A DNA stretch of 64,000 bases, taken from positions 1 through 64,000 of the forward strand of contig WGLQ01000003.1 of assembly GCA_016125495.1 (NCBI GenBank), given 5' to 3'. The first letter of the stretch is position 1; the number at the start of each line of letters is the position of its first letter. The notes beneath the pieces are model-generated. The model was given only the letters and a program-made list of their open reading frames with translations, did not search any database and was not told where the DNA came from. This DNA comes from Hyphomicrobiales bacterium (GTDB lineage Bacteria; Pseudomonadota; Alphaproteobacteria; Rhizobiales; RI-29). This document shows, piece by piece, positions 1-55,388 of the stretch. The position numbers and the translations under genes are program-made.

Positions 1-44
1 CCCCACCACACGGTCGCACCCGCTCGCACCCGCTCCTACCGCCG

Positions 45-998
45 TCAGCCGCCCTCGCGCGCCGCACGCACCGCCTTCAGAACCCCGACGATGGCGCGGT
101 CGCGCTCGGCGGCCATGTCCTTGAAATGGCGGTCGCCGGCAATCGCGTTGCAGCCATCGACCATGCGATTGCGCAATTCGGCGGTCAGCTCCGGCGCCTC
201 GAGCCGGGTCCAGGGCAGTTTGAGCGCCGGCCCGAACTGGTCGAGGTTGGTGGCCATGCCGCCGGCCCCGCAGGCGACGTGAAAGGCCATGCACTGGCCC
301 TGGATCGCCATGCGCGGGGCGGGCCCGTTCATCAGGGCGATGTCGATGTCTTCGGGTGTCGCCTCGCCGTTCGCCACCATGTGCAGCGCCTCGCGCCAGA
401 GGGCCTCCTGGAGGCGCGTTGCAACGAAGCCGGGCACCTCCTTTTTCATCACCAGCGGCGCCTTGCCGGCATGGGCGTAAAAATCGCGGGCCCAGGCGAC
501 CGCCTCGGGCGCGGTTCGGGCGCCGCCGATGATCTCGACCAGCGGCAGGAGATAGGGCGGATTGAAGGGATGGCCGACGATGGTGCGCTCGGGCGTTTCG
601 CAGCGGGCCTGAATGTCGGTCATCGGCAGACCGGAGGTGCTCGAGGAGATCACGACGCCAGCCGGAACGAGCCGGCCGAGCCGCTCATAGAGGTCCTGCT
701 TGATGTCGAGGCGCTCGGGGGCGCTTTCCTGGACGAACTCGGCATCGCCGACCGCTTCGGCCAGATCGTCGGTCAGCCGCAGCCGCTCGCGCGAGGCGCC
801 GGGCGCGAGGCCGAGCGCCGTCAGGCTGATCCAGGCGGTGTCGAGGACCTCCTCGAAGGCAGCGCGCTCGGCCATGGAGTGGAGATAGGCCGAGACATCG
901 TAGCCCCTCGCAAGGAAGTGGGCCGCCCAGCCCGCCCCGATCGGGCCCGCGCCGATGCTCGCCACACGCCTTACGTCCCCGGGTGCCGGTCGCGCCAT
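45..998 (-). CDS. 3-hydroxyacyl-CoA dehydrogenase family protein, L-carnitine dehydrogenase (LcdH)-like
   Basis: 317 aa. N-terminal Rossmann motif IGAGPIGAGWAAHFLARGYDV matches the NAD-binding signature of the LcdH/lambda-crystallin family. ATG at 998, stop at 45. GC3-rich. Confidence 0.75.
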   Translation of the reverse strand: MARPAPGDVRRVASIGAGPIGAGWAAHFLARGYDVSAYLHSMAERAAFEEVLDTAWISLTALGLAPGASRERLRLTDDLAEAVGDAEFVQESAPERLDIKQDLYERLGRLVPAGVVISSSTSGLPMTDIQARCETPERTIVGHPFNPPYLLPLVEIIGGARTAPEAVAWARDFYAHAGKAPLVMKKEVPGFVATRLQEALWREALHMVANGEATPEDIDIALMNGPAPRMAIQGQCMAFHVACGAGGMATNLDQFGPALKLPWTRLEAPELTAELRNRMVDGCNAIAGDRHFKDMAAERDRAIVGVLKAVRAAREGG

Positions 999-1025
999 GC
1001 TGGTCCCTCCGCCCCTCGATGCCCC

Positions 1026-1829
1026 TCAACGACCCTTGAACCGAGGCTCGCGCCTCTCGACGAACGCACGCACGCCCTCCTGCGCGTCCTCGGACGCGAG
1101 CATTGCGCGATAGGTCTTCATCTCGTTGGTGCGCATGCGCGCGAAAGCCTGCTCGAGCGGAACGCACTCGATGCCGCGCAGCACTTCCTTGACGGCCTGC
1201 AACGCGAGGGGGGCGGCCTTGGCGAGGTGTGAAGCCCATTCGCGCGCGGCCGCCATCAGATCGGCATGCGGCACCACCTTGTTGACGAGGCCGTAGTGGG
1301 CGGCCTCGCTGGCCGGCATCCGCCTGCCGAGCAGGAACATCTCCATGGCGATGTTGTGCGGCACACGGCGGGGGAGGCGCTGGAGGGCACCGGCGTCGGG
1401 GACGATGCCGAGCGGCAGCTCGGGTAAAGCGAACTGGACATGCTCGGAGGCGATGACGAGGTCGCAGGCCAGCGCCAGCTCGAAACCGCCGCCGATGGCG
1501 AGCCCGTTGAGGGCGGCGATCACCGGCTTGTTGTTGTTCCAGTTCTCCGTCAGTCCGGCGAAGCCGCCATCGCCGTAGTCGCCGACCTCCCACCAGTTGT
1601 CGAGCTGCGTGCCGTCCGCCTCGAGTGATTTGAGATCCCATCCCGCCGAGAAAATGCGATCGCCGCGCGCGGTCAGGATCGCCACGCGCAGTTCTGGATC
1701 GTCGCGCAATTCGGCGAATGCGGCACCAAGCTCGCGGCTCATCTCGTGATCGATGGCGTTGACCTTGGGCTTGTCGAGCGTCACCTCGAGCACATGGCCA
1801 TTGCGCCTCACCTCGACGTACTGGCCCAT
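1026..1829 (-). CDS. caiD: enoyl-CoA hydratase/isomerase (crotonase), carnitinyl-CoA dehydratase CaiD-like
   Basis: 267 aa. Collinear similarity to E. coli CaiD across the whole length (HVLEVTLDKPKVNAID, FSAGWDLK, GGFAGLTE, GGGFELALACD, SEDAQEGVRAFVERREPRFKGR at the C-terminus). Only the C-terminal 267 codons of the 838-aa track ORF are credible. Confidence 0.75.
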   Translation of the reverse strand: MGQYVEVRRNGHVLEVTLDKPKVNAIDHEMSRELGAAFAELRDDPELRVAILTARGDRIFSAGWDLKSLEADGTQLDNWWEVGDYGDGGFAGLTENWNNNKPVIAALNGLAIGGGFELALACDLVIASEHVQFALPELPLGIVPDAGALQRLPRRVPHNIAMEMFLLGRRMPASEAAHYGLVNKVVPHADLMAAAREWASHLAKAAPLALQAVKEVLRGIECVPLEQAFARMRTNEMKTYRAMLASEDAQEGVRAFVERREPRFKGR

Positions 1830-2065
1830 CGACACCCACTCCATGCGTTGCAGCCGGGCCGGCCGAAGCCCTTCGCATGGCGGTCGGCCGGCGCGACGAT
1901 CCATCACCGTGGCCAACAGTCGGGCAACGGCGCCGACCGCATTGCGGAGAATTCGTCTCGATCTGTCATTTTTTGGAATGCGCCGGCGCTGGCTGCCCGG
2001 CGCCCCGGCGAGGGCCCACCACGGCCGTGGCACCCTGCGGGACCGCCGAGGAACCGGGAGACGTC

Positions 2066-2089
2066 GTCCGGGCGCGCTGGCGCCCGGAC
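2066..2089 (-). terminator. perfect 10-bp stem / 4-nt loop hairpin immediately downstream of aioA stop (no U-tract)
   Basis: GTCCGGGCGC-GCTG-GCGCCCGGAC read directly. Lies 25 bp after the aioA stop codon on the minus strand. High-GC hairpin without T-run, so it may be an attenuating or processing hairpin rather than a strict intrinsic terminator. Confidence 0.35.
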
Positions 2090-2113
2090 GGTTCTTCGTA
2101 GAGGGCCAGCCGA

Positions 2114-4579
2114 TCAGCCGGCGGTGTATTCCTTCGACTTGAAGGAGAGGTGCGCGATCGCCGCCGGGGCGTCCGAAATCTTGCGGATGTTGCCCCAGGT
2201 CTGCTTGTAGTTCGGCAGGATCAGCTCGTTGACACCGGCGTTGATGACGTTGCCCTGCGTGCCGGTCGGCGCGCCGAACAGCATGAAGGTCTCGCCGCGC
2301 TTTGCGGTCGGCGTCGGGTAGGCCATGGCCTGCGTCGCACCGACGTCGTTGTAGACCTCGACGAGATCGCCCGCCTTCAGGCCGAGTTCCGCCATGTCGT
2401 CCGGATTGATCTCCAGGAACGGATAGGGATAGCGGTCGGAGACGAAGTCGTTGTCCTTGTCGAGGAACCAGTTCTGCCAGTTGATGTTTGAGCGGCCGTT
2501 GTTGATCAGGAAGCGGTGGCCCGCCTTCTGTGCCGCCTTGCCCGGCGCCTGCAGCCCGCGCCAGCCACCGCCGCAGAAGAGGGCCTTCTTGTCCTGGCGA
2601 CCGTGACGCGTGAAGTTGCCGTCCGTGTAGAGCCGCTTGGTGCCGACCAGCTGGCCGTTCGCGAAACCGACGACCGGCTCCTGGACGCCATTGTTGCCCA
2701 TGGCGCGCAGGCGCTCGTAGGTCACCTCCGGATTGCCCTTGTTGTAGCCGTCCATGAAGGCGTCTTCCTCGCTCGACCAGTCGTAGCCCTTGAACTGGTC
2801 GGCGTATTCGTTGCGCCCTTCCTCGCGCAGCACGCGCTCGAGGTGTTGGGCAAGACCGGCCGCGATGAGGCAATCCGGTTTCGCCGAGCCGGGACCGTCC
2901 ATGTATTTCTCGACCAAGCGCATGCGCCGCTCGCCGTTCATGGAGGTCAGATTCATCTCCCCGGATTCGACCGCCGGGAGGATGACATGCGCGCCTTGAC
3001 CGATCTGGGTGTGGATGATGTCGACGTTGACGGAGAACAACCCACCCGCTTCGATCGCACCGACGATCGCATCGACCAGTTCCTCGCGCGTCGCGCCGGC
3101 ACGGGCGTCCATGGCCTCCTTGACCATGTTCGTGCGCCGGTTGTAGACGCGCTTGAACTCGACGGCGTTCAACGTCGTCTTGTAATGGTCGTTCGCCCAG
3201 ATGTGGTGAACCTTGCCGCGCCCGGCGATGATGAGCTGGTCGAGGTAGGGAGCCGGGCGCCCGACATGGGCGTCGGAGGGACGAAAATACCCCTCCTGGT
3301 GACCGCCGAGGCGGCAGACGCCACCGCCCTCGCGACCGATGTTGCCGGTGGCGAGGCCGATGTTCACAAGCGCGCCGATCGTGCGGTAGTTGTCGTTGCC
3401 CCAGATGATGCCCTTTTCGTAGGCCGTGACGCACTTGCGGCGCCGGCCGTCGATCGGCTCGGCGATCCAGGCGGCCGCCTTCATGATGTCGGCCTCGGAA
3501 ACGCCGCAGATCCCGGCCGCCTCGGCGAGCGACATGCGGCACTCGGCCTTGGCCATCTCGAAGGAGCCGAGTGGGGAGGGGAACTGTTCGTTCTGGGGTT
3601 GCGCGACATCCCCCTGGAAGGTGGATTTGGCGATGAAGTCGCTGTCGACCCAGCCCTTCTCGACGATGTGCGTGAAAATGGCGTTGAAGAGCGCGAGGTC
3701 GGTGCCCGAGGCGATCGCCAGGTGGAGGACGTTGTCCTTGCCCGCCTCGATCTCGGCGGCATTGACGGAGACGGTGCGGCGCGGGTCGACGAAGATGACC
3801 TTGGCGCCCTTGCGCATCCCGGGAACCATGTGGTTGAGGAACAAATTCGTCTGCGTTTCGAGCGGGTTCGCACCGACGATCATGATCGTATCGGTGAGAC
3901 CGTAGTCCTCGTAGGCGTAGTTCAGCTCGTCGACGCCCATGTCGCGGCTCGAGTGAACCTCGGAGTTGTAGGCCGGGCGGTTGTGGATGCGGCAGTTCTT
4001 GACCTTCATGGATTGGAAATAGAGCTTGCCGGTGCCCCAGGTGTTCTCATAGCCGCCGGCCGAGCCGCCGTGGTCGAACATGGAGACGAAAAGGTCGTCC
4101 TCGTCGTCCTTGTCGATGACGCGGGCGGTGACGCGGGCAACGAGGTCGAGCGCGTCGTCCCAACTCGTCGGCTGCCACGTGCCATAGCGCCAGACCATCG
4201 GCTCGGCGAGGCGCTGCTGCTGCGTGCCGGTGATGTCGGAGCGCCGGTTCTCCGCCATGCGGGCGCCGCGCACGGAGCCGAGGCCGGAGTTCACGGTGCA
4301 GCCCTGATCCGGCTTGATGACGAGGTGGACGTCGCGGCCGTTCTGCTTGACGACGTTGTACATCGAGGGAGCGTACCAGGCGTCCGTCTCGGCGCCCTGC
4401 TGGCGCGAGAGATCGGCGCCGAGTGCGTTCTCACCGGGTGCCGTGCCGCCCTGCTTGTTCACCGGCCAAGTGTAGGCGTGATAGCCGCAGCCGACGATGC
4501 AGTAGTGGCAGGTGACGTTGTGCTTCTTGGCGTCCGCCGGAATGATGGGCAAACGGTCCACGTGTCGCTTATAAGCCAT
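2114..4579 (-). CDS. aioA: arsenite oxidase large (molybdopterin) subunit AioA
   Basis: 821 aa. N-terminal 3Fe-4S motif CHYCIVGCGY. Long collinear identity to Alcaligenes/NT-26 AioA (NRPAYNSE, YEKGIIWGNDNY, GGHQEGY, EMNLTSMNGERR, MLFG). GGAGG RBS 6 nt before ATG at 4579. Confidence 0.95.
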   Translation of the reverse strand: MAYKRHVDRLPIIPADAKKHNVTCHYCIVGCGYHAYTWPVNKQGGTAPGENALGADLSRQQGAETDAWYAPSMYNVVKQNGRDVHLVIKPDQGCTVNSGLGSVRGARMAENRRSDITGTQQQRLAEPMVWRYGTWQPTSWDDALDLVARVTARVIDKDDEDDLFVSMFDHGGSAGGYENTWGTGKLYFQSMKVKNCRIHNRPAYNSEVHSSRDMGVDELNYAYEDYGLTDTIMIVGANPLETQTNLFLNHMVPGMRKGAKVIFVDPRRTVSVNAAEIEAGKDNVLHLAIASGTDLALFNAIFTHIVEKGWVDSDFIAKSTFQGDVAQPQNEQFPSPLGSFEMAKAECRMSLAEAAGICGVSEADIMKAAAWIAEPIDGRRRKCVTAYEKGIIWGNDNYRTIGALVNIGLATGNIGREGGGVCRLGGHQEGYFRPSDAHVGRPAPYLDQLIIAGRGKVHHIWANDHYKTTLNAVEFKRVYNRRTNMVKEAMDARAGATREELVDAIVGAIEAGGLFSVNVDIIHTQIGQGAHVILPAVESGEMNLTSMNGERRMRLVEKYMDGPGSAKPDCLIAAGLAQHLERVLREEGRNEYADQFKGYDWSSEEDAFMDGYNKGNPEVTYERLRAMGNNGVQEPVVGFANGQLVGTKRLYTDGNFTRHGRQDKKALFCGGGWRGLQAPGKAAQKAGHRFLINNGRSNINWQNWFLDKDNDFVSDRYPYPFLEINPDDMAELGLKAGDLVEVYNDVGATQAMAYPTPTAKRGETFMLFGAPTGTQGNVINAGVNELILPNYKQTWGNIRKISDAPAAIAHLSFKSKEYTAG

Positions 4580-4590
4580 TTCATCCTCCC

Positions 4591-5112
4591 TCAGAGCACG
4601 TTCGACAGGCGACCGTAGAGCAGCTCATCGACGCCTTCGGCATAGATGTCGCCCTTGTCGTCCACGCGGAGCATGTATTGCGGGAGGTTCTGGGTTGCCT
4701 GTCCCCAAACCTGCATGCCGCCGGCCTCGCAATCGAAGACCGAGTAATGGCCGGGGCAGTTGAGCGTGCGGCGCTCGGCGTTGTAGCTCAGCGGAAAGCC
4801 CTTGTGCGGGCAAACGGTGGAAAATCCGACGATGTCACCGTCGGGGCCGACACCACCCTCGATCCGCTTTCCGAGCTTCATCACGACGCCCGGCGCATCG
4901 GCATCGGGATAGGCGACTTCGAGCGGCTCGTCGGCCTTGAGGTCGGCCAAATTGGCGAGCCTCGTGACCGGATACTCGACGAGCGCGCTCGCCACCTTCG
5001 CCTCGGCCCGCGCCGGCAGCATGGTGGCAGCCGCGGCGCCCGCCGTCGCGAGTGCGCCGCCTCTCAGGAACTGGCGCCGGCCGAGATCGACCAGCTTGTT
5101 GCAACCCTTCAT
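4591..5112 (-). CDS. aioB: arsenite oxidase small Rieske subunit AioB (Tat-exported)
   Basis: 173 aa. Twin-arginine motif RRQFLRG. Rieske ligands CPHKG...CPGHYS. Sits 12 bp upstream of aioA. GGAGGAG RBS. Confidence 0.9.
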   Translation of the reverse strand: MKGCNKLVDLGRRQFLRGGALATAGAAAATMLPARAEAKVASALVEYPVTRLANLADLKADEPLEVAYPDADAPGVVMKLGKRIEGGVGPDGDIVGFSTVCPHKGFPLSYNAERRTLNCPGHYSVFDCEAGGMQVWGQATQNLPQYMLRVDDKGDIYAEGVDELLYGRLSNVL

Positions 5113-5159
5113 GGATGTCTCCTCCAGATCGGCCCGTTGGTTCGGGTCGAGCGGAGAAG

Positions 5160-5176
5160 AGCAACCGGCGTGCCAA
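5160..5176 (-). promoter_or_regulatory. sigma-54 (RpoN) -24/-12 promoter of aioBA
   Basis: Minus-strand sequence TGGCACGCCGGTTGCT gives TGGCAC-N5-TTGCT, a perfect match to the consensus. It lies about 45 bp upstream of the aioB ATG and downstream of the NtrC-family aioR, consistent with known AioR/RpoN control of aioBA. Confidence 0.75.
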
Positions 5177-5217
5177 GGTTAACATCCCCCTATGCGTCTG
5201 ATTTCACGTATTTTTAT

Positions 5218-5285
5218 TTTCCGGAAGGGTCGACGACGTTCGATTTTCCGGACATTCGCGGCAGGGGGTGTCCGGAAATCCGAAC
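5218..5285 (-). promoter_or_regulatory. candidate AioR upstream activator sites: three TCCGGA palindromic cores (5220-5225, 5247-5252, 5271-5276) including GTCCG-N6-CGAAC
   Basis: TTCCGGAA, TTCCGGAC and GTCCGGAA spaced 27 and 24 bp. The second and third form an inverted repeat TTCCGGAC-N16-GTCCGGAA. They sit about 60-125 bp upstream of the -24 element, the usual distance for an enhancer-binding protein. The resemblance to a GTYCG-N6-CGRAC motif reported upstream of aioBA in other genomes is from memory. Confidence 0.4.
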
Positions 5286-5303
5286 GGGCGGGCGGCTCGA
5301 ATT

Positions 5304-6632
5304 TCAATCGCTGGACGAGATGGCGAGCCGCTTCATCTTCTCCCAAAGCGTGGTGCGCGAGACGCCCAACAGCTCGGCCGCGTCGGTGGCATTGCCAGCG
5401 GTCGCGGCAAGGGCCCGCTCGATCTGACGCCGCTCGGCCCGGGCACGCACCTCGGCGAGGGTCAAGAACTGCTCGCCGGACGCACCCTGAGCATTCGCGG
5501 ACCCGTCGGGAAAGAGATCGGCGGGCATGATCCATTCACCAGCCGCAAGGGCCACCGCACGCTCGACCCGATTGCGAAGCTCGCGCACGTTGCCCGGCCA
5601 ATCGTGTTCGTGAGCCATCTCGAGTGCCGTCGAGGTGAACCCGCGCAGGCGCGACTGATAGTGCTCGTTGAAGGCCTCGAAGAAGTGGCGGAGCAGGCCC
5701 TCGATATCTTCCCTGCGCTCGGCGAGCGGGGGGATGCGAACCTCGATCGTGTTGATGCGGTGATAGAGGTCGGGGCGGAAGGCGCCGGTCACCACGGCCT
5801 CGGCGAGGTCGCTGTTGGAGGCGCAGACGAGCCGAGCATCGAAGCGCAGAGGCCGTTCCCCACCGACCCGCGTGAACGAGCGCACTTCGACGAGGCGCAG
5901 CAGCTTTGCCTGAAGCGCAAGCGGCATCTCGCCGATCTCATCGAGGAAAAGAATTCCGGAACCGGCGCGCTCGGCGTAACCCTTGTGGGAGGCGTGGGCG
6001 CCAGTGAAGGCACCGCGCTCGTGGCCGAAAATCTCGCTCTCCATGAGATCGGCGGGCAGCGCCGCGCAATTGACGGCAACGAAGGGCTGGTCGGCGCGCA
6101 CGCTGGCCGAGTGCAGGAACGCGGCCGCGACCTCCTTGCCGCTTCCTGTCGGGCCGCAAAGGAGCACCGCGCTCGGCAGATCGGCGACCCGCAGCAAGAG
6201 CGCCTCGACCTGGCGCATCGCCGGCGATGCGCCCATGGTGCCGGCGCCGGGCGTAGCGGCGCAGGCCGGCGCGAGCGCATTTACGCGATCCAGGAGGTTT
6301 TCCATGTCGAAGGGCTTGGTGATGTAGTCGCTCGCGCCGGCCCGCAGGAGACCGACCGCCTCGTCGATCGTGCCGTATGCGGTCATGAACAGGAAGGGCG
6401 GCACGGCCTGACGAGAGGATATCTCGCAGTAGAGGTCGGCGCCCGAGCCGTCTGGAAGCCGGATGTCGCAGATGACGATGTCGGGGCAATTGGCCGCGAG
6501 CCCGCGGCGGGCCTCGCTGCCGTCGCGCCACCACTTCACGCGGGCACCCTCGAGGCGCAGCGCCTGCCAGAGGCTCTCGCCCATGATCGGGTCGTCCTCG
6601 ATGAGCGCGATCGAGCGTCCCTCAAGCAACAT
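5304..6632 (-). CDS. aioR: sigma-54-dependent response regulator AioR (NtrC family)
   Basis: 442 aa. Receiver domain (DIVICDIRLPDGSG), AAA+ sigma-54 interaction domain (GPTGSGKE, GAFTGA, ESELFGHE-like), C-terminal HTH. Overlaps the aioS stop. Confidence 0.9.
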   Translation of the reverse strand: MLLEGRSIALIEDDPIMGESLWQALRLEGARVKWWRDGSEARRGLAANCPDIVICDIRLPDGSGADLYCEISSRQAVPPFLFMTAYGTIDEAVGLLRAGASDYITKPFDMENLLDRVNALAPACAATPGAGTMGASPAMRQVEALLLRVADLPSAVLLCGPTGSGKEVAAAFLHSASVRADQPFVAVNCAALPADLMESEIFGHERGAFTGAHASHKGYAERAGSGILFLDEIGEMPLALQAKLLRLVEVRSFTRVGGERPLRFDARLVCASNSDLAEAVVTGAFRPDLYHRINTIEVRIPPLAERREDIEGLLRHFFEAFNEHYQSRLRGFTSTALEMAHEHDWPGNVRELRNRVERAVALAAGEWIMPADLFPDGSANAQGASGEQFLTLAEVRARAERRQIERALAATAGNATDAAELLGVSRTTLWEKMKRLAISSSD

Positions 6633-8121
6633 CCGAAAACTCCTGCTCGACCTTGCTGCCCAGGGCCGAGGCGCCCTGCGGGAACCACATCGTGATCATC
6701 GAGCCGCCGGCCGGACGTGCCTCGACCTCGATCCGTCCGCGCGCCTCGAACAAGAGCCGCTTGACGATCCAGAGTCCGAGGCCGCCCTCCTGGTCGACCG
6801 GCAGCCCGGCGCGCGCGCGGTCCTCGAGGAAGGCGCACAAGGGGGCGGGCATGCCGGGTCCCTGGTCGCTCACGCGCACAACCAGCATGCCATCCCGGCG
6901 CTCGGCGGAAAAGCCGATGGTTGCTCCCTTCGGCGAGGCCGCGCAGGCGTTCAACAACAGGTTGAGGGTGGCGTCGCGCACGGCATGGGCTGGAACGCGG
7001 AGCCTCTCGTCCAGGCCGTTGTGCCAGTCGAGCTGCAGGCCACGGCGGCGCAACTCCGGGCGTATGAGAACGGCGATATCGTCGAGATGCGCCGGGCTGA
7101 GGGCCTGCTGGTCGTGCCCGGCACGGTAGGTCGCGAGTGTCGAGCGCACGACATTGCGGATGCCGAGAAGGCCCCGCTCGATGAGGCTCGCCGAACCGAC
7201 ACGCACGTCCGCCCGCTCGCCGTGACGTTTCAGGGTCTGCAGGGCGTTGAGCATACCGCCGAGCGGGTTGTTGATCTCGTGGGCCATGCCGGAGGCCAGG
7301 CGACCAAGGGCGGCGAGGCGCTCCTCCTCGGCAAGGCGGCTCAACAGCTTCTCGCGTTCGGCGACGCTGTCGACCAGCGAGTTGTAGTTGCGGAACAGGC
7401 GGCCGAATTCGCTCCTGGGCTGGCCGAGCTGATGCTCGGGAATCGGCGTGACCCGCCCCGAAACACCTGTATTCATGTGCTCGGCGAGAACGTCGATCGG
7501 GCGCAGCATGCGGCGCACCGCGGCATAGCCGACGATCGCGAGGAGGAGTGTCAGGAGGGCATTGGTGACGAGGAGAGTCTTCAGCACGTCCCAGCGCTCC
7601 TCGATCAGCGCGGCGATGCCGACCTCGGCGTAGATCGTCCCGACGACCCGGTTCTGGTAGACGAGGTCACGGCTCAGACCGAAGCGGCCGTCATCCTCGT
7701 CCATGCTGGCGGCGACCTCTGGCGACGAGCGCGCACGGATCGTCTCCGCCAGGGGCGACTGCAGCGGGAACTCGCGCGGCAGGCTCGAGGCGAGCACCAG
7801 CCCGTCCGGTCCGGTAACCGTGGTCCAGGCGATGTCGAGGCCCTCGTAGCGCTGGCCCGCGCGCTCGAGGACGTCATAGACCTCCCAGACGTCCTCGCGC
7901 AGCACGTGCGGCAGCACGGCCGATGAGAGGCCGTCCAGATAGGCGCCGGACAGCTCCGACAGATGGCGCTTCTGGGTCTCGACAAGGCGAACGAGCACGC
8001 GGTCGCTGACGAGCACGCTGACGCTCAGCATGAGCAGCACGACGACCGCCGGAACACGGTAGGCGAGCGGCCAGCCGAGCGGGTTGAGACCGGTCAGCAT
8101 GCGCAGGAGCCACGGCATCAT
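6622..8121 (-). CDS. aioS: sensor histidine kinase AioS
   Basis: 499 aa. Two N-terminal TM helices flanking a periplasmic loop. HisKA H-box MAHEINNPLGG. HATPase_c motifs (DQGPGMP, GGLGLWIV). ATGA overlap with aioX. Confidence 0.85.
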   Translation of the reverse strand: MMPWLLRMLTGLNPLGWPLAYRVPAVVVLLMLSVSVLVSDRVLVRLVETQKRHLSELSGAYLDGLSSAVLPHVLREDVWEVYDVLERAGQRYEGLDIAWTTVTGPDGLVLASSLPREFPLQSPLAETIRARSSPEVAASMDEDDGRFGLSRDLVYQNRVVGTIYAEVGIAALIEERWDVLKTLLVTNALLTLLLAIVGYAAVRRMLRPIDVLAEHMNTGVSGRVTPIPEHQLGQPRSEFGRLFRNYNSLVDSVAEREKLLSRLAEEERLAALGRLASGMAHEINNPLGGMLNALQTLKRHGERADVRVGSASLIERGLLGIRNVVRSTLATYRAGHDQQALSPAHLDDIAVLIRPELRRRGLQLDWHNGLDERLRVPAHAVRDATLNLLLNACAASPKGATIGFSAERRDGMLVVRVSDQGPGMPAPLCAFLEDRARAGLPVDQEGGLGLWIVKRLLFEARGRIEVEARPAGGSMITMWFPQGASALGSKVEQEFSDVA

Positions 8122-8993
8122 CCCGCCCTCCGCACCTGTTCGAGCTTTGCCGCGATGCCGTCGAAGAGGCTCGGCGTTGCGGGCGCAAAGCCGTCGAGCC
8201 GCAGCAGACGAAGCACCTCGGCCCCGACCGGGTCGTTACTCATGTCGAGCAGTGCCTCGCGCAGGGCAATCGTCGCGCGAGCCTCGCGAAGGCGCGCCAT
8301 GCAGGCGATCGGCGGAAAGCCCAGCCAGTCGGAGCGCAGCAGAACGCGCGTGCGCCCCGCCAATTCGGGCTCGAGTTCGGCGATGACCTCCCAAACGTAG
8401 CCGTCGACGCTGCCGCTCTCGGCGAGCCCGGAAGCAACGGCGCGCACGACATTGCGATGCCCATAGGTGAAGAACGTGCGGCGAAAGAACTCCTCGGGGC
8501 GCTGGGCCCGCTCGGCCAGCGCTGCCATGGTCACCAGATAGCCGGAGTTGCTGTTGGGGTCCGAGAAGGCATGGATGTCACCCGTCAGGTCCTCGAGCCG
8601 GTCTGCCGGGCGTTCGGCGCCGACGATGACGTAGGACTGATAGAGCGGGCGCCCACGCCAGAGCGGGACGGCAACGACGGAGAGCTGTTCGCGATAGGTG
8701 ACGTAGGGGTAGCCACAAATCCAGGCTGCCGTGAGCTGCCCCGAGACGAGCAGGGAGGTGATCTCCTCGTAGGTGCGGCGCTGGACGAGCATGACCTCGC
8801 TCCCCAGCCGGCGCGCCAGATACTCCTTGAGGCGCGAGAGCAGTTCGAGATCGTTGTTCAGGAAGACCGGGGTCAGCCCGAAGCGGACCACATCAAGGCC
8901 CGCGACTGCGCGCCGAGGCGAGCCGCTCGACATCACTGCCGCCACCGCCCCTGCGACGAACAACCGCCGACTTGGCTGATTGCCAATACCCAC
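8118..8993 (-). CDS. aioX: periplasmic arsenite-binding protein AioX (PhnD/SsuA-like SBP)
   Basis: 291 aa. Signal peptide with RR (VGIGNQPSRRLFVAGAVAAV...AVA|G). Phosphonate-SBP-like fold. Position and orientation match the aioXSR signalling triad. Start is GTG at 8993 (ATG at 8933 would remove the signal peptide). Confidence 0.85.
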   Translation of the reverse strand: MGIGNQPSRRLFVAGAVAAVMSSGSPRRAVAGLDVVRFGLTPVFLNNDLELLSRLKEYLARRLGSEVMLVQRRTYEEITSLLVSGQLTAAWICGYPYVTYREQLSVVAVPLWRGRPLYQSYVIVGAERPADRLEDLTGDIHAFSDPNSNSGYLVTMAALAERAQRPEEFFRRTFFTYGHRNVVRAVASGLAESGSVDGYVWEVIAELEPELAGRTRVLLRSDWLGFPPIACMARLREARATIALREALLDMSNDPVGAEVLRLLRLDGFAPATPSLFDGIAAKLEQVRRAG

Positions 8994-9278
8994 GACGATC
9001 CTCCCATGGCGCCGCCCAACATTGCCGGTGGCGTCCCGTTGGCGGCGAGCTTACCACCGCAGGGCCGAGCAGCAAGGCGATCCGTCGGCGCCGGGCTGGC
9101 CGTGACCGGCTCGACCTGCAGACGTGGTGACACCGATGCCTTGGCCTCATGGGGAGTTCAACACCCGCATCACGAGACCGCGAGCCGCGCGATGTGGCTG
9201 CCCTTGCGGACTGGCATCATCGTCTTTGCCGGATTATTCTGGCGTCTCCATTCTGCCGCCAAAGCGAATTGGGGAACC

Positions 9279-10565
9279 ATGCCGGTGGAAATCGCGGGAT
9301 ATGGCAGGACATTCGTTGCCGGGCTCGTCCTGACGGTGCTCTGCGGCACGGGCGCCGCCGCGCAGTCGAAGAGTGTCGAGCGGGCCAACGCGCCGCAATG
9401 GACACTGCACGGCCTCGTCGAGGACGCCAACCGGCCCGGCCTCTGCCCAACGGCCTACGCAGCCAACTCCATAACCTCCATTATCCTCCACGCCCTGGAA
9501 GCCCAGCAGGCCGGCGACAAATCCCGCATGGAGCGCCTGCTTGGCATCGCGGCGCAATATCAGCGTGAAATCTGCCGAACGCCGGCCCCGGACGACGTCA
9601 TCTTCGTACGCTGCCGGATCGACGACGTGGAGGCCTTCGGCACACGAGTCACCATCGCCAAGCTCAGCGCGATCATCAAGAGTGAGATCACCAAGGGCGA
9701 ACGCGCCTTCTATGCCTGGACCTACGCGGACATCCGCGAAGCTCCCAAAGGAGACAAACGGGCGCAGGAACAGCACCGGCGCTGGTGCACGGACCAGGGC
9801 CAGCAGGCGAACAACGGCGAGCAGGAAGGAGGCCCGGTCAAACCCGACAAAGGAGGTGGCGAAGGCGCGGATTCGGCCGTTGTGCTCACGAGCGATCTGC
9901 TCTTGCGCCTGCAGCAGCGGCTCTACGATTTCGGCTATTCGATCAGTGTTTTCGACGGCACCCTGCAGCAGGAACTGGTGCAGGCGGTCGCGGCCTTCCA
10001 GCGCAATGCCGGTCTCGAGGCCACGGGCCAGATCACACGCCGGACCGTCGAACTGATCGATAGCACTCCGACGCCCGGTCCCTGGGTCGCGATCGCCTTC
10101 CTCGGCAATGGCCGCTATGGGACGTCGAGCGGACAGCTGACGAGGCGCGCCGCAGAGCAGGCAGCCCTGCAGCAACTGCGACGTCGCAATCGCTCGGGCG
10201 ATCCGCGCATCTCATCGGCCTCGGGGCCCGCGTGCCTGTCGCTCGCGACGACGAACTACACCAGCGGCTCGCGGCGGAACCGCGTGAACCACACCCAAGC
10301 CTTCACCAACGGAGCACGCGACAAGGCGGGCGCGATCGATGCGGTGCTCGCCTACTGCAATCGTGAGAAGGGCGGCGGCACGTGCCGCGTGCGCCATACC
10401 GAGTGCATCGGCACCAGCGCCGCACCCTCCGGCGATGGTCAGGGGCGCCATCTGCCGGGCGATCAGACGGCGGGCTCGTCGGGCGGAGGTTCGGGTCGGC
10501 ATCTGCCGGGCGACCAGTCGCTCGGCTCGCAGGGGCCCGTCGAGGTGCTGCCGAAGAAGCCCTAG
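9279..10565 (+). CDS. secreted protein with peptidoglycan-binding (PG_binding_1) domain and DUF4189-like C-terminal region
   Basis: Credible start MPVEIAGYGRTFVAGLVLTVLCGTGAAAQS (signal peptide); upstream part of the 702-aa track ORF is Arg/Pro-rich junk. PG-binding helix pair LYDFGYSISVFDGTLQQELVQAVAAFQRNAGLEATGQITRRTV. C-terminal tandem GRHLPGDQ peptide repeat encoded by a near-identical 23-bp DNA direct repeat. Confidence 0.55.
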   Translation: MPVEIAGYGRTFVAGLVLTVLCGTGAAAQSKSVERANAPQWTLHGLVEDANRPGLCPTAYAANSITSIILHALEAQQAGDKSRMERLLGIAAQYQREICRTPAPDDVIFVRCRIDDVEAFGTRVTIAKLSAIIKSEITKGERAFYAWTYADIREAPKGDKRAQEQHRRWCTDQGQQANNGEQEGGPVKPDKGGGEGADSAVVLTSDLLLRLQQRLYDFGYSISVFDGTLQQELVQAVAAFQRNAGLEATGQITRRTVELIDSTPTPGPWVAIAFLGNGRYGTSSGQLTRRAAEQAALQQLRRRNRSGDPRISSASGPACLSLATTNYTSGSRRNRVNHTQAFTNGARDKAGAIDAVLAYCNREKGGGTCRVRHTECIGTSAAPSGDGQGRHLPGDQTAGSSGGGSGRHLPGDQSLGSQGPVEVLPKKP

Positions 10566-10748
10566 GTGCAATCGAAGTTCGACCTAGTGCAGCGCTTCCA
10601 ACGTTTGGTTCGGAACCTTGCCGCGAGCGGGTACCAAATGTTGGATGCATAGGCTGCACAAGAATTACAAACTTGCTGGTGTTCCTCTTGGCGCCGACAC
10701 TTGAGCAATCGAGTGCCGCAAAGGGTATCAAGTGTCGGAGCCGGAACA

Positions 10749-12344
10749 CTAGTTCGCGCCTGGCCGCGTGCCGCCGGGCAACGGCGCGTTGGGCAGGCTC
10801 GGCAGACGATCCAGCCCCGCCATGAAGCGAGGACCGAAAATGCCGTCGAGCTGCCCCTCGTAGAGCCCTGCCTCGCGCATCAGGCGCTGCAATTCGATCC
10901 GGAACTCGAGCGTCCAGCCCTTCCAGGCACCGCGCATCTGACGCACGGTGTAATCGTGGCCGAGCCGCAGGGCGGCGTAGATCCAGCGCGCAGCCTGCAC
11001 GGGATTGGCCGGCAGGCCGTCGCCCGAGTCGTAGGCCGCGGCGGTGTTGAACATCGCGAATTTGTCCCCCTGGTGGGAGGCCGACAGGTGCAATCGCACG
11101 GCACGCTCGTGGTCGCGCGCAACGCCGAGTCCACGCTCCATCATGTAGCCGTAGTTGGTGAAGGCGGCGAGATAGCCCTGGCGCACCAATGGCTCGTAGA
11201 GCCGGGCCGCCTCGCCATAACGTTCCGCCTTCTGGTAGGACCGCGCGAGCTGATACATGAAGCGCGGCGTGCCGGGGTAGGCAGCGAGCGCCTTCTCGCA
11301 GACGGCGATCCCGGCGGTGCCGTCCAGCACACGGAATTCGTTGCCCGGCACCACGCGCTCGCGGTCGTTGTCACTGCCGGCGACGATGTCGCAGGCATCG
11401 ACCGGGGGACGACCGCTCGTCGAGGGGCCGTCCGTCCTGGTGCCCGTTGCGCCACCCCCGGGCGGCAGGAAGAGGCTGAGGTCGCCTTGCGCCGGCTTCT
11501 CGACGACGGCCGGCGGACCATCCTCGCGCACTGGACCAGGCGCCTGACGGTCGCCATCACCCGATGTCGAGCGGGCGAGTTCGAGGGTGCCGACAAGGGA
11601 AGAATTGTCCCAGGGGATCTGCTGCTCTGCGGTCGCTGCGATGACATCACGGCGAACGAGGCGGAGCATGGCCTGGACGTCGGTGTCCGGCGTCGCGATG
11701 TGGCGCAGAAGGGCGCCGGTGAACGGACTGTTTCGACCTTCACCGTCGAAGGCGACGTTGCCCGGCTGCGTCGCGTAGGCGAGCAAGGAACCATAACCGA
11801 CATCGATGGCCGCCAGACCCGCGCCGACCGCGTCCCGCCGCTCGCCGAGGGCCTCGGCGAGCGCCTCGCCGAGGGGGTTGTTGCGGCAGGCGTCGAGGAA
11901 AACGACGGTCGTCAGGCGGTGCGCGTAGAGAAGCTGGACGACCTCGTCGAGCGGCACCAGTTCGAACGGCAGATCGGCCTCGTCGGCGAGGCGGGCATCG
12001 ACCGGAAGGATGAAATTGCGGCCGTTCACCTGGAGCCCGTGGCCGGCGTAATAGACGACCGCCGTGCTCGCCACCTCGAGGCGTTCGGCGAAGGCCTCGA
12101 GGCGGCTCGCGAGATCGCCGCGAGCGAGATCGAGACCGAGGTGGACCTCGAACCCCATCGCATCGAGGGCGGCTGCAACGTCGCTCGCGTCGTGGACCGG
12201 ATTGGGCAGCGGGTCCGCGTTCTCATAGGCGGCATTGCCGATCACCAGGGCGATGCGCAGATCACCCGCCCGCACCGGCGACGCGGCGAGAAGCGCTGCG
12301 ACCGCTCCGAGCAAGACGAAGCGCAATACGGAGGTCATCGGCAT
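10749..12344 (-). CDS. secreted caspase-family (peptidase C14) protein with Sel1/TPR repeats and C-terminal PG-binding domain
   Basis: Signal peptide MPMTSVLRFVLLGAVAALLAASPVRA. Caspase His/Cys dyad in canonical context (VVYYAGHG ... VVFLDACRNNP). Sel1-like repeats (NYGYMMERGLGVARDHERAVRLHLSASHQGD...). C-terminal LQRLMREAGLYEGQLDGIFGPRFMAGL PG-binding-like segment. Confidence 0.75.
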   Translation of the reverse strand: MPMTSVLRFVLLGAVAALLAASPVRAGDLRIALVIGNAAYENADPLPNPVHDASDVAAALDAMGFEVHLGLDLARGDLASRLEAFAERLEVASTAVVYYAGHGLQVNGRNFILPVDARLADEADLPFELVPLDEVVQLLYAHRLTTVVFLDACRNNPLGEALAEALGERRDAVGAGLAAIDVGYGSLLAYATQPGNVAFDGEGRNSPFTGALLRHIATPDTDVQAMLRLVRRDVIAATAEQQIPWDNSSLVGTLELARSTSGDGDRQAPGPVREDGPPAVVEKPAQGDLSLFLPPGGGATGTRTDGPSTSGRPPVDACDIVAGSDNDRERVVPGNEFRVLDGTAGIAVCEKALAAYPGTPRFMYQLARSYQKAERYGEAARLYEPLVRQGYLAAFTNYGYMMERGLGVARDHERAVRLHLSASHQGDKFAMFNTAAAYDSGDGLPANPVQAARWIYAALRLGHDYTVRQMRGAWKGWTLEFRIELQRLMREAGLYEGQLDGIFGPRFMAGLDRLPSLPNAPLPGGTRPGAN

Positions 12345-12498
12345 CTCTCGAGTTCCGAGGTCTGCATCGTCGCGGATGGCGAAAGTCTCCCGCCAGCGGC
12401 AAGGATAAGCGCGACGGCCGGCCGGGACAACCGGTGGAGCGCTGACCAAGTGGGTGGCAGACCTCGGCCCGGCGCCCGTTCCGGGGCCGCTGCCCGCC

Positions 12499-14311: not shown

Positions 14312-14385
14312 GAGGCTGTAGCTCAGCGGTAGAGCAGCCGGCAATGGCCGGCAGGGCGGGGGTTCGAGTCCCTTCAGCTTCTCCA
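14312..14385 (+). tRNA. tRNA-like gene, non-canonical (6-nt anticodon loop CAATGG; G3:U70 acceptor; CCA encoded)
   Basis: Cloverleaf read by hand: acceptor GAGGCTG/CAGCTTC (G3:U70 wobble), D-arm GCTC-AGCGGTA-GAGC, T-arm GGGGG-TTCGAGT-CCCTT (two G:U pairs), 3' TCCA. The anticodon arm GCCGG-CAATGG-CCGGC has only a 6-nt loop, so no standard anticodon can be assigned. Could be a pseudo-tRNA or a sequencing indel. Confidence 0.5.
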
Positions 14386-14458
14386 AAACGACTAGCTCAG
14401 AGGGTAGAGCAAAGGATCGTCACTCCTTTTGTCGCGGGTTCGACTCCCGCGTCGTTTG
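14386..14458 (+). tRNA. tRNA-Asp(GTC)-like gene, atypical (C33, A1:U72, no encoded CCA), abutting the previous tRNA-like with zero spacer
   Basis: Acceptor AAACGAC/GTCGTTT + G73. D-arm GCTC-AGAGGGTA-GAGC. Anticodon arm AAGGA-TCGTCAC-TCCTT (GTC at 34-36 but C instead of U at position 33). T-arm GCGGG-TTCGACT-CCCGC. A canonical tRNA-Asp(GTC) exists at 22900-22977. Confidence 0.5.
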
Positions 14459-14841
14459 CCTGTGCTTTAAAACGCACACTTGGCTGGTAACCAAGCTCCA
14501 AAATGAGGGAGCCGGCAGCCGAACCGGCCTTCGTTGTGGTCGAGGCGAAAGCCGAGGCGGCACGCGGGCGAGCATCGCGGCGCCCTGTGCGCCCGGCGGA
14601 TACCGCCGGCCGGCAAGGTCCGAGCGCGGGACACCGGCGCCTGCCGTCCCTCGGGGCGACAGGCGGCCGCAATCCCGAGGCGAGGACGGCGCCAGCCGGC
14701 TCAAGCCGGCGCCCGTGTCCGGGATGTGGTGAGGCGGCCGGCGACCTTGGAAGCCACGATCGGACCCGACGAACCACGAACCACACGCGGCCGGGATGGG
14801 CCGCACCTTCGCGATGGCTGCACACACTCGGAGATCGCGCA

Positions 14842-20967: not shown

Positions 20968-21349
20968 TACACGTCCCCTTGACAAATCCCTCGTTCGGCC
21001 AATGCGGCCACCAACCCCCGTTCTTCGACGTGTCATCCCTGGCGGACTGTCGTCGAGTGACCGCCGGGATGATCTTCTTGCCGGAGCCAAGCATTGCGCG
21101 AAATGCGAGAGGCCGCAAGCACGTGCAGCCCTCGTCTGTCGTGGCGCCGACGGACGCCACAAACGTCGTTTACGCATTCTTACGATCGCCCCCGGGGGGA
21201 AACGATCGGCGCTGGCGTTGGCACAAGTCCTGCTCTTGGAGGCGGCAGATGAAGCGCGGCGACCGTCCGTCGGTCGGTCGCGCTCGGCAGGGGTCATTCG
21301 GGCGAGGGGCGGCAGTCGGGCAATCGGCTGTGTTGGGAGCGTATCCGCG

Positions 21350-21973
21350 ATGCAGGAAAAGAATAACCAGATCCTCTATGGGTATTGGAATGGCGTGCGG
21401 GGGGAGCGCTTGGCGCCGCGCCGCTTCGACATCGAGCCGTCGCGGATCGCCGAGATTCTCCCCGACACGTTCATCCTGGAGCGAGTCGAACTCGAGCGCT
21501 TCCGGTTCAGGCTCGCCGGGACGCGGATCTGCGAGCTGTTCGGGCGGGAGTTCCGCGGCATCGATCTGATGGACATCTGGCATGGCGACGACCGCAAGGC
21601 CATCGGCGACGTCATGCAAACCGTGGTTCGTGATGCGGCCGTCGGCATCGTCCGCTTCCAGGCGAGCGCGGGTGGCAAGACGCTGTCGGAATGCGAAATG
21701 ATCCTGCTGCCGCTCGTGCACACGGGCGATCAAGTGAACCGCGTGCTCGGCGCGCTGGCGACCGCAGGTCGGCAGGGGTGGGCCGTCGGCCGCCCGATCG
21801 AGGCCATCCGGCTCATCGGCGTCGAGACGATCTGGCCGGACGGGCGGCCATTCGCGGTGGTCAACCGGATGGATCGCCAGTCGCCGTTCCTGACACAGCC
21901 GCGCTATTCGCGCCTCGTGACCAGCGAGCACCGCGCGTTCCGCGTCTACGATGGCGGGCGCAGCCAGGACTGA
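21350..21973 (+). CDS. PAS_5 (PF07310-type) domain protein
   Basis: 207 aa from MQEKNNQILYGYWNGVRGERLAPRRFDIEPSRIAEILPDTFILE, the diagnostic N-terminus of the alphaproteobacterial PAS_5 family. Confidence 0.55.
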   Translation: MQEKNNQILYGYWNGVRGERLAPRRFDIEPSRIAEILPDTFILERVELERFRFRLAGTRICELFGREFRGIDLMDIWHGDDRKAIGDVMQTVVRDAAVGIVRFQASAGGKTLSECEMILLPLVHTGDQVNRVLGALATAGRQGWAVGRPIEAIRLIGVETIWPDGRPFAVVNRMDRQSPFLTQPRYSRLVTSEHRAFRVYDGGRSQD

Positions 21974-22899: not shown

Positions 22900-22977
<78 letters not shown>

Positions 22978-23338: not shown

Positions 23339-24343
23339 ATGGACATGACGCGCCGGGGGGCGCTCGGTGCGCTCGGTGGTGCGCTCGGTGTGCTCGGCGG
23401 CGTTGCCAACGGTGCCAAGGCCGACGATGGCACCTCCGCTCAGCTCGCCCAGGCAGGCCATGTGGATCACAAGTTGCAGGCACCGGGCTTTTATCGCCAG
23501 CGCGTCGGCGAGCGGGTCATCACGGTCATCAGCGACGGGCTCGTCAACTGGCCGGTCGGAGTGGCAGCAACCGACGTGCCGGACGCGCAGCTCAAGGCTC
23601 TGCTGCGCGAGAGCTTCCTCGATACCGAGACGGTCGCCGCACACCTCAACGCATGCGTGGTCGAGACGGCGGATGCCCGGATCCTCATCGATGCCGGAGC
23701 AGGTGCCGACTACCAACCGAGTTCGGGCCGACTGCTGCAGAACCTGGCGGCCGCCGGCTACAAGACCGAGGACATCGATCTCGTGGTGGTCACGCATTGC
23801 CACCTCGACCACATCGGCGGCCTCGTCGACCCGTTCGCGAACACGCCCGTCTTCCCGCGCGCCGACTACGTGATGCTGGGCGCAGAGTGGGACTTCTGGA
23901 CGGGCGAGCAGGCGCGCGCGACGCTCAAGGAGCCGTGGTCCGCAACCATCGACAAAGTGCAGGCCATCCTGCTCGCGATCAGCGCGCGGGTTCGCCGATT
24001 GACGGAGCCTGGTGAAGTGGCGCCAGGGATCTCGCTCTTTACGACGGGCGGTACCACACCGGGCCATGCGTCGGTGCTGGTCGATGGCGGAGCCGAGAAG
24101 CTCATCATCGCCGGCAATGCACTTGCGCATGCTGTCGTTGCTTTCGAGAGGCCCGACTGGCGCTCCGGCCTCGATCTCGACGCCGAGATGGCCAAGAATA
24201 CGCGGCTCGCGTTGCTGGAACGGTGTGCGAACGAGGCACCGTTGGTGCTCGGCTATCATCTGCCGTATCCCGGGCTCGGCCGCGTCGGGCGGCGCGGACG
24301 GACCTATCGCTGGGTACCCTCGCTCTGGACCTGGGAGGTTTGA
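23339..24343 (+). CDS. Tat-exported MBL-fold metallo-hydrolase
   Basis: 334 aa from MDMTRRGALGALGGALGVLGG (twin-arginine). HxHxDH motif VVVTHCHLDHIGG. Later His/Asp ligands. Confidence 0.65.
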   Translation: MDMTRRGALGALGGALGVLGGVANGAKADDGTSAQLAQAGHVDHKLQAPGFYRQRVGERVITVISDGLVNWPVGVAATDVPDAQLKALLRESFLDTETVAAHLNACVVETADARILIDAGAGADYQPSSGRLLQNLAAAGYKTEDIDLVVVTHCHLDHIGGLVDPFANTPVFPRADYVMLGAEWDFWTGEQARATLKEPWSATIDKVQAILLAISARVRRLTEPGEVAPGISLFTTGGTTPGHASVLVDGGAEKLIIAGNALAHAVVAFERPDWRSGLDLDAEMAKNTRLALLERCANEAPLVLGYHLPYPGLGRVGRRGRTYRWVPSLWTWEV

Positions 24344-53028: not shown

Positions 53029-53406
53029 ATGATGCGTGAACTCGTCACGGACCCGTCAGCGCCCGCCTCGACCTCTCCCGTCTCGCAGGCAACGCTTGGT
53101 GGCGGGTTCGTGTTCGTCTCGGGGCAGATGCCACGCGACATGGCTAGCGGGCGCATCGTCGAGGGCGCAGAGGCGCAGGCGCGCCTTTCGATGCAGCACT
53201 GCCTCTCGATCCTGAAGGCCGCCGGCTCCGGCCCCGAAAAGGTGATGATCGCCTGGATCTACGTGACCGACCTCTCCGTGAAGCCAGCCGTCAACGCGGT
53301 CTTTGCCGAGACGTTCGGGGATCGCCCGCCCGCGCGCAATCTCGTTGCCGTCAAGGACATCGGCGAGGAGGCCCTCGTCGAGATATCGCTCATCGCACTC
53401 GCGTGA
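53029..53406 (+). CDS. RidA/YjgF-family (reactive enamine/imine deaminase-like) protein
   Basis: 125 aa from MMRELVTDPSAP. GGFVFVSGQ and conserved C-terminal AVKDIGEEALVEI pattern. GGAAGGA RBS. Confidence 0.7.
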   Translation: MMRELVTDPSAPASTSPVSQATLGGGFVFVSGQMPRDMASGRIVEGAEAQARLSMQHCLSILKAAGSGPEKVMIAWIYVTDLSVKPAVNAVFAETFGDRPPARNLVAVKDIGEEALVEISLIALA

Positions 53407-55378: not shown

Positions 55379-55388
55379 CAAGGTCTCC

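Follow-up and report, generated by a model that had tools for sequence, protein, structure and literature searches.

A predicted AioXSR/RpoN-controlled arsenite-oxidase locus, aioXSRBA, with tandem AioR boxes in a Hyphomicrobiales bacterium contig

We describe here aioXSRBA, an arsenite-oxidase locus located within positions 1 to 64,000 of contig WGLQ01000003.1 from a Hyphomicrobiales bacterium (assembly GCA_016125495.1); this whole 64-kb stretch of DNA is called the window below. According to our analysis, the locus is very probably an intact arsenite-oxidase system of the canonical type controlled by AioXSR and RpoN (sigma-54), and an ordinary one. The genes aioX-aioS-aioR-aioB-aioA form five intact open reading frames (ORFs) on the minus strand between 2114 and 8993. 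An earlier sequence-only reading of this DNA had considered the five genes intact and canonically ordered, and both the family scores and the ORFs agree with it; the interval of 2066-9279 that it assigned to the locus does contain the genes, but reaches from the hairpin behind aioA to the start of the divergent neighbour, while aioX ends at 8993. The genes are as follows.

8118-8993, minus strand: aioX, 291 amino acids, GTG start with the ribosome-binding site GGGAGGA upstream, predicted periplasmic As(III)-binding protein by homology
6622-8121, minus strand: aioS, 499 amino acids, sensor histidine kinase, its start overlapping the aioX stop by 4 bp
5304-6632, minus strand: aioR, 442 amino acids, sigma-54-dependent response regulator, with an 11-bp overlap with aioS
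4591-5112, minus strand: aioB, 173 amino acids, Rieske small subunit, with the ribosome-binding site GGAGGAG at 5125-5119
2114-4579, minus strand: aioA, 821 amino acids, molybdopterin large subunit

The large subunit, AioA, matches the TIGR02693 equivalog with 1141 bits against a cut-off of 359, contains the Pfam domains Rieske_3 (3Fe-4S; 145 bits), Molybdopterin and Molydop_binding, and has the NT-26 arsenite oxidase 4AAY as its top PDB match (1307 bits); the N-terminal 3Fe-4S motif of such large subunits, C24-X2-C27-X3-C31, is read in the translation as C24HYC27IVGC31. The small subunit, AioB, reaches 206 bits with TIGR02694 (cut-off 96), matches Pfam Rieske, and shows in its translation the twin-arginine (Tat) signal RRQFLRG and the ligands CPH...CPGH that mark arsenite-oxidase small subunits. 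Judged by its sequence, AioBA is an arsenite oxidase of the dimethyl sulfoxide (DMSO)-reductase superfamily, and As(III) oxidation is predicted for it.

The three regulatory proteins are equally complete. AioX matches Pfam Phosphonate-bd with 168 bits and aligns without gaps to the NT-26 AioX structure 6ESV (E = 2.6e-105); the AAWICGYP cysteine, the PVFL loop and the segments SDPxSNSGY, TYGHRNV and SVDGYVWEV are kept as in NT-26, so that this PhnD-like protein carries the ICGYP cysteine together with the Y/S/S/H/D pocket motifs, the residues of the arsenite pocket having been assigned their roles earlier (PMC5908839). AioS contains HisKA and HATPase_c and is syntenic among the relatives described below. 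AioR consists of Response_reg, Sigma54_activat, AAA_lid_14 and HTH_8, and its translation shows GAFTGA and the Walker A motif GPTGSGKE. A histidine kinase and an NtrC-type regulator (REC, AAA+ and Fis-type HTH) thus adjoin aioBA, as in a three-component system. The spacers measure 191 bp between aioR and aioB and 11 bp between aioB and aioA. The codon bias of the aio ORFs is native-like (G+C at third codon positions, GC3, of 0.81-0.89) in a window of high G+C content (about 0.65-0.69), and the Rfam scan found tRNAs only, with no riboswitch or small RNA in the aio locus.

The suggested mode of control is read from the aioR-aioB spacer, which holds the following elements, with positions relative to a predicted transcription start near 5150 and box scores from a position weight matrix (PWM) that was built from 74 related sites.

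5270-5285, minus strand: distal AioR box GTTCGGATTTCCGGAC, exact match to GT[CT]CG-N6-CG[GA]AC, centre about -128, PWM 26.9
5238-5253, minus strand: proximal AioR box GTCCGGAAAATCGAAC, exact match to GT[CT]CG-N6-CG[GA]AC, centre about -96, PWM 20.5
5220-5225, minus strand: third TCCGGA hexamer, TTCCGGAAAATAAAAA, left half-site only, PWM -4.5, 27 bp from the proximal box
5191-5203, minus strand: core AATCAGACGCATA resembling a site of integration host factor (IHF), preceded by an A/T tract, centre about -47, one mismatch to WATCARNNNNTTR
5160-5175, minus strand: sigma-54 -24/-12 promoter TGGCACgccggTTGCT, TGGCAC-N5-TTGCT

Read along the minus strand, GTTCGGATTTCCGGAC is followed after 16 bp by GTCCGGAAAATCGAAC, then by an A/T-rich stretch with TTCCGGAAAATAAAAA, by AATCAGACGCATA, TGGCACgccggTTGCT and GGAGGAG, and finally by the ATG of aioB at 5112. 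The sequence-only reading had pointed to the RpoN element in this spacer, and indeed TGGCACgccggTTGCT is exact and the only TGGCAC-N5-TTGCT in 64 kb, with the -24/-12 arrangement of the published promoters. The same reading had noticed GTCCG-N6-CGAAC, which we find at 5253-5238 as the proximal box, starting 78 bp before TGGCAC. The consensus GT[CT]CG-N6-CG[GA]AC has exactly two matches in 64 kb, 32 bp apart and both in the 191-bp spacer; each is a 16-bp palindrome (inverted repeat), and they start 173 and 141 nt before the aioB ATG, as in the published tandem upstream activating sequence (UAS). The number of boxes per window is unremarkable (1.2 expected), while a Poisson estimate for two of them in one 191-bp spacer gives p of about 6e-6.

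This motif was defined by Andres et al. (2013, PMC3673622), as GT[CT]CGN(6)CG[GA]AC, for the AioR of Rhizobiales and tied to a -12/-24 promoter, and Li et al. (2013, PMC3834237) found tandem palindromes with a -24/-12 region in all 12 aioBA operons having aioXSR. Binding of AioR was demonstrated by electrophoretic mobility shift assay, with a DNase I footprint on GTTCGGATTTCCGAAC, by Shi et al. (2017, PMC5335332), and our distal box differs from this footprinted site by one mismatch. For H. arsenicoxydans and A. tumefaciens 5A, it has been demonstrated that aioBA depends on RpoN (PMC7533571). Judging from its motifs, the spacer is a clean instance of the published architecture, tandem-palindrome UAS plus sigma-54 promoter, and it would be logical to consider it a new example and not a new mechanism. 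The earlier proposal of a ready map of an AioR enhancer is right in so far as the upstream repeats correspond to that enhancer, but such a map had already been published, the repeat unit was chosen wrongly, and the second full box was missed: the first TCCGGA is merely the right arm of the box at 5285-5270.

The unit chosen there was the hexamer TCCGGA, in three evenly spaced copies. Three copies are indeed present in the spacer (5271-5276, 5247-5252 and 5220-5225), but their spacings in the direction of transcription are uneven, 24 and then 27 bp; two of them are the inner parts of the 16-bp AioR palindromes, which are the actual unit, and the third is probably not a full AioR site. We have to weigh here whether this third hexamer could be a real, weak AioR site that helps hexamer assembly. 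Activators of the NtrC type are able to use additional weak sites, the left arm and spacer of the proximal box recur unchanged in TCCGGAAAAT, and the window has fewer copies of TCCGGA than expected (13 against about 32). However, the right arm reads AAAAA instead of CGRAC, as the negative PWM score reflects, the site is offset from the proximal box by 27 bp, out of helical phase, true box pairs being 32-33 bp apart, the hexamer overlaps the A/T tract of the IHF-like site, and none of the relatives has a counterpart of it at this place. A third functional site is accordingly unlikely in our opinion, and on the same four grounds (right arm, phase, relatives and A/T overlap) the trimeric site that the three cores might have reflected was rejected.

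For the comparison we used 80 related loci, with AioA 78-92% identical, obtained from an AioA scan of GTDB representative genomes. Most of the loci with enough upstream sequence have aioX-aioS-aioR-aioB-aioA in the same orientation, and in the Mesorhizobium/Aminobacter/Aquibium group aioXSR is divergent from aioBA. An AioR box 125-175 nt upstream of aioB was found in the majority of the 80 loci and, of those with aioXSR, in almost every one; a second box, sometimes degenerate, stands 32-33 bp from the first in many Hyphomicrobiales-type loci. The proximal box begins 78-79 bp ahead of TGGCAC in the window and in L001, L003, L004, L006 and L017-L027, and a sigma-54 element lies 50-64 nt ahead of the aioB ATG in about 20 relatives, a position that matches the one in the window.

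A strong AioR box with no TGGCAC-N5-TTGC at the expected place was observed in L009, L012, L014, L016, L030, L032-L034, L036 and the Rhodobacterales loci L041-L080; L058, for example, has TGGCCT-N5-TTGAT upstream of aioB. Either the -24/-12 element of these loci is divergent or the start-codon anchors are off. Two aioBA loci were seen in single metagenome-assembled genomes (MAGs) of Filomicrobium (L002 and L008) and Aestuariivirga (L015 and L016), and one Filomicrobium aioBA copy has neither aioXSR nor an AioR box.

The IHF-like core is judged mostly by its place. The window has five matches with one mismatch to WATCARNNNNTTR in 64 kb and no match to the strict IHF consensus, so the positional signal comes from the one-mismatch version only; the core in the spacer begins 28 nt ahead of TGGCAC, and L001, L002 and L021 have such a core 28-29 nt before TGGCAC on the same strand. 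We infer a DNA bend site, which the conserved offset supports and does not prove.

Taken by homology with the characterised systems, these elements suggest the following course of events. As(III) would be bound by periplasmic AioX in its conserved cysteine pocket, and the signal would pass to the membrane kinase AioS, which would phosphorylate AioR. Dimers of phosphorylated AioR are expected to occupy the two palindromes centred near -128 and -96, and looping of the DNA may be aided by the A/T-rich IHF-like site near -47. The AAA+ ring of AioR, acting through its GAFTGA loop, would then remodel the RpoN holoenzyme at TGGCAC-N5-TTGCT, and transcription of aioBA would start near 5150. The Tat signal of AioB presumably directs the export of the AioBA heterodimer to the periplasm, where it would oxidise As(III) and pass the electrons to a soluble acceptor, a c-type cytochrome or cupredoxin, encoded outside the 64-kb window. 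We propose that aioXSR forms a separate, translationally coupled upstream operon, probably with a promoter of the sigma-70 type, for which the following match is the candidate.

9233-9262, minus strand: sigma-70-like promoter match TTGGCG-18-AATAAT upstream of aioX, candidate aioXSR promoter

It is the sole match to a consensus of the sigma-70 type in 1-10800. Nothing that we found contradicts the picture as a whole, but a few points limit it: this candidate promoter is supported by no more than its consensus match and lies 240 nt away from the start codon, the IHF-like site has its one mismatch and rests on position, and the window has no rpoN, IHF genes, moeA/moaA or electron acceptor, whose presence is assumed.

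The 3' end of aioBA and what follows it require a separate consideration. The hairpin after aioA and the two genes beyond it, neighbours outside the aio system, are:

2065-2090, minus strand: GC-rich stem-loop, 11-bp perfect stem with a 4-nt loop, CGTCCGGGCGC-cagc-GCGCCCGGACG, 24 nt past the aioA stop
1026-1829, minus strand: CaiD-like crotonase, 267 amino acids
45-998, minus strand: L-carnitine-dehydrogenase-like 3HCDH protein, 317 amino acids

The hairpin had been noticed before as one of 10 bp; it is present, but its stem has 11 bp. Its folding energy is -25.5 kcal/mol (z -4.05), and no T-run (U-tract) comes after it; folded in a 77-nt context it gives z = -0.96, so that the signal is clear for the hairpin alone. 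A perfect GC-rich hairpin within 150 nt after aioA occurs in 42 of the 80 relatives, mostly 11-28 nt past the stop and usually with no T-run, regardless of whether cytC, MoeA, DUF2478 or any other gene comes next, and NT-26 also has hairpins after aioA. It is a positional feature of aioBA 3' ends whose sequence is not conserved. From this recurrence the stem-loop is best read as a putative 3' end of the aioBA transcript or an element stabilising it, a reading that counts against strong read-through, and in the mechanism suggested above it would close or stabilise that transcript.

The crotonase scores 309 bits with NF002936 (crotonobetainyl-CoA hydratase; cut-off 500) and the second protein, with Pfam 3HCDH_N and 3HCDH, 321 bits with NF005471 (L-carnitine dehydrogenase; cut-off 414). 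The best NCBIfam matches therefore agree with the earlier naming of a CaiD-like crotonase and an LcdH-like dehydrogenase, but both stay below the equivalog cut-offs, and the two proteins are homologues, not assigned equivalogs. The surroundings of crotonase homologues of 79-82% identity were compared in seven distinct contexts (among L082, L084 and L085-L090). Six of the seven have a Bac_luciferase (luciferase-like monooxygenase, LLM) gene, crotonase and 3HCDH along with divergent DJ-1/AraC, BKACE, acyl-CoA dehydrogenase and CoA ligase; L088 is the one context in which the cluster of AraC, BKACE, acyl-CoA dehydrogenase and CoA ligase is missing. This conserved cluster makes the label 'carnitine-type' reasonable. 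In all seven, the gene immediately ahead of the crotonase is LLM, at a distance of 18-23 bp in six cases and of 213 bp in the remaining one. The window has no LLM gene at this place, aioA and the 285-bp aioA-crotonase spacer standing there instead, and the spacer contains no remnant of LLM or of DUF2478; at the other side the cluster is cut off by the end of the window at position 1. The neighbouring carnitine-type operon thus appears truncated, and the missing LLM gene is the one feature specific to this locus, its only local oddity and a small new point.

Such a neighbourhood raises the question of read-through, which the sequence-only reading had considered possible: a transcript driven by AioR and sigma-54 would cross the U-less hairpin and place the crotonase and the carnitine-dehydrogenase-like gene under the control of As(III), their usual upstream gene and promoter having been lost. 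The two genes share the strand of aioBA, the hairpin is without a T-run, the 285-bp spacer has no sigma-70 consensus match, and the LLM gene found in every other context is gone. Nothing found here shows such transcription, and several observations oppose it: the stem-loop is stable, and a like hairpin is found in the relatives whatever gene comes next; in NT-26 the downstream cytC and moeA1 were not significantly induced by As(III) (PMC3673622); the 285-bp spacer could hold a promoter of its own, which one scan with an E. coli-type consensus can miss; and these genes are next to aio in none of the 80 relatives, which argues that the adjacency was not selected. Read-through is possible in principle but improbable on this balance. 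Slightly less probable still, in our judgement, is a stronger version, according to which the aioXSRBA cassette landed in or joined an LLM-crotonase-carnitine-dehydrogenase operon and replaced its first gene and promoter, the pair now being transcribed mainly by read-through from aio; if it were true, arsenite would be an inducer of an acyl-CoA pathway of the carnitine/gamma-butyrobetaine type.

Returning to the reading of an ordinary AioXSR/RpoN-controlled oxidase, the absence of some genes often mentioned together with aio has to be placed in proportion. No CXXCH motif was found among the compositionally plausible ORFs of the window; Pfam scans of about 40 called window genes gave no match to Cytochrom_C, MoeA or ars-type families, and tblastn with the MoeA, MoaA, cytochrome c, DUF2478, ArsR, Acr3, LMWP-type ArsC, PhnE and PhnD of the relatives found nothing in the window besides aioX. 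The Pfam-scanned genes are housekeeping or catabolic, such as folE, hisI, tig-clpP-clpX-lon-hupB, ABC transporters and aminotransferases. In the window, aioA is not followed by aioC/aioD (cytochrome c and a MoeA-type gene for the molybdenum cofactor, Moco), and the linkage to ars plus pst/phn genes that characterises an arsenic island (Silver & Phung 2005; Li 2013) is not seen, about 2 kb being visible on the aioA side.

These checks bear out the earlier statement that cytC/moeA and ars genes are missing here, and it is the importance attached to the fact that does not survive. The general rule of cytC and moeA coming after aioA is true of NT-26 and A. tumefaciens 5A (PMC3834237), but not of this clade: a cytochrome c directly after aioA was found in two of the 80 relatives (L018 and L020), while 14 have MoeA downstream, 21 DUF2478 and 10 MoaA, and in the remaining ones unrelated genes follow, e.g. 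for a nitroreductase, ArsR, MaoC or an ELM1-like protein. Full 10-kb flanks are available for 48 relatives, and in 27 of these no Acr3, LMWP-type ArsC or PhnE was found within 10 kb. The absence of cytC/moeA and of ars linkage is therefore not unusual in this alphaproteobacterial AioA clade. A. tumefaciens GW4 still oxidised As(III) after losing cytC (PMC7533571), which indicates that acceptors need not be linked and lets an unlinked one be expected here. The survey shows that cytC-moeA after aioA and the ars/phn linkage belong to a few model strains and do not typify the clade, and there is no reason to see anything unusual in the lack of a local electron acceptor.

The same absence could be brought forward for a stranded partial duplicate, that is, a non-functional or redundant copy left with no acceptor, Moco or ars genes; 64 kb with no cytC, moeA/moaA or searched ars/phn genes and the paired aioBA loci of the MAGs mentioned above (L002 with L008, L015 with L016) would fit it. 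Against it stand the five intact ORFs with their native-like codon bias, the cofactor and ligand motifs that have all been kept, the regulatory sites matching the strict consensus, the majority of the fully flanked relatives being just as bare, and the GW4 result. We consider such a decayed or superfluous copy extremely unlikely.

As for the way in which the locus came to its present position, homology at the DNA level between the window and its closest relatives goes no further than the aioA stop on one side and breaks off inside the 5' part of aioX on the other, the flanks being unrelated, which suggests that aioXSRBA is a self-contained module of five genes found in differing contexts. Between the flanks of the cassette (1830-2113 against 8994-9320) the only repeats are GC-rich 9-10-mers, which we rate as chance, and no integrase or transposase family was found among the Pfam-scanned genes. 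A megablast against plasmids gave no close relative, the best match being Rhodobacter sp. CZR27 with 79% over aioBA, and no evidence of a known plasmid island. The tRNAs nearest to the cassette are at 14.3 kb of the window, and none of those at 14312, 14386 and 22977 is a duplicate of another. At 14312-14460 (plus strand) two tRNA genes directly adjoin, without any spacer between them, the first having no anticodon assigned by ARAGORN (Rfam tRNA 53.8 bits) and the second being tRNA-Asp(GTC); a further tRNA-Asp is located at 22901-22977 (minus strand). Beside aioX, positions 9279-12449 encode a divergent protein with PG_binding_1 and DUF4189 and a protein with a caspase domain (Peptidase_C14) and Sel1 repeats, which are unrelated to arsenic metabolism, neither being common to any of the aio relatives.

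Some other observations were made in the rest of the window. Two matches to the sigma-54 element with one mismatch have no AioR box nearby: TGGCACAAGTCCTGCT at 21219-21234 (plus strand) is inside an ORF with a PAS_5 domain (21002-21973), and CGGCACGTCGGTTGCT at 23566-23581 (minus strand) lies opposite a gene of the metallo-beta-lactamase fold. A single ORF of 663 amino acids at 53390-55381 (minus strand) combines arylmalonate-decarboxylase (Amdase) and class-III aminotransferase domains and may be either a fusion protein or an over-extended ORF call.

The significance of the locus is little beyond cataloguing. It is a well-preserved example of AioXSR/RpoN control, in which neither box departs from the strict consensus and the spacing is easily read (box, 32 bp, box, 78 bp, -24 element); it can be used as a template for AioR footprinting, equivalent templates being already published and one of them footprinted.

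Finally, the locus can be placed among the known ones. The nearest sequenced relatives are L001, from an uncultured Alphaproteobacteria MAG, and L002, from a Filomicrobium MAG, both with an AioA 92% identical to that of the window. Like the window, they have aioSR before aioBA; L001 also has aioX, and the short contig of L002 ends within aioS. Their sigma-54 element stands 63-64 nt before the ATG, the distal box at -173/-174 and an IHF-like core 28 nt before TGGCAC, while the proximal box, a full consensus match in the window, is degenerate in both of them. After aioA, L002 has DUF2478, and L001 has a weak DUF2478-like match (36%, tblastn) followed by MaoC-type dehydratases.

Among the characterised systems, aioXSRBA-cytC-moeA1 of NT-26 (Pseudorhizobium banfieldiae, Rhizobium sp.; plasmid NT26_p1) has the same five genes in the same order and orientation, with overlapping aioX/aioS/aioR frames, a TGGCAC-N5-TTGC promoter and the conserved As(III) pocket of AioX; the identity with the window is 69% for AioA, 70% for AioB, 54% for AioR, 45% for AioS and 56% for AioX. 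Its two AioR boxes upstream of aioB are 33 bp apart, compared with 32 bp in the window, and its proximal box is 67 bp from TGGCAC instead of 78 bp, one helical turn less. In NT-26 a cytochrome c and MoeA/Glp come directly after aioA and phnCDE adjoins, none of which the window has, and its locus is on a plasmid, whereas the flanks in the window are of a housekeeping character (folE, hisI and the tig-clpP-clpX-lon-hupB cluster). The island of A. tumefaciens 5A/GW4 carries cytc2, a Moco gene, mcp, ars and pst/pho genes (PMC3834237, PMC5335332), all missing from the window, but its aioXSRBA shares the AioR box consensus, its aioBA is RpoN-dependent, and the footprinted GTTCGGATTTCCGAAC is only one base away from the distal box described here.

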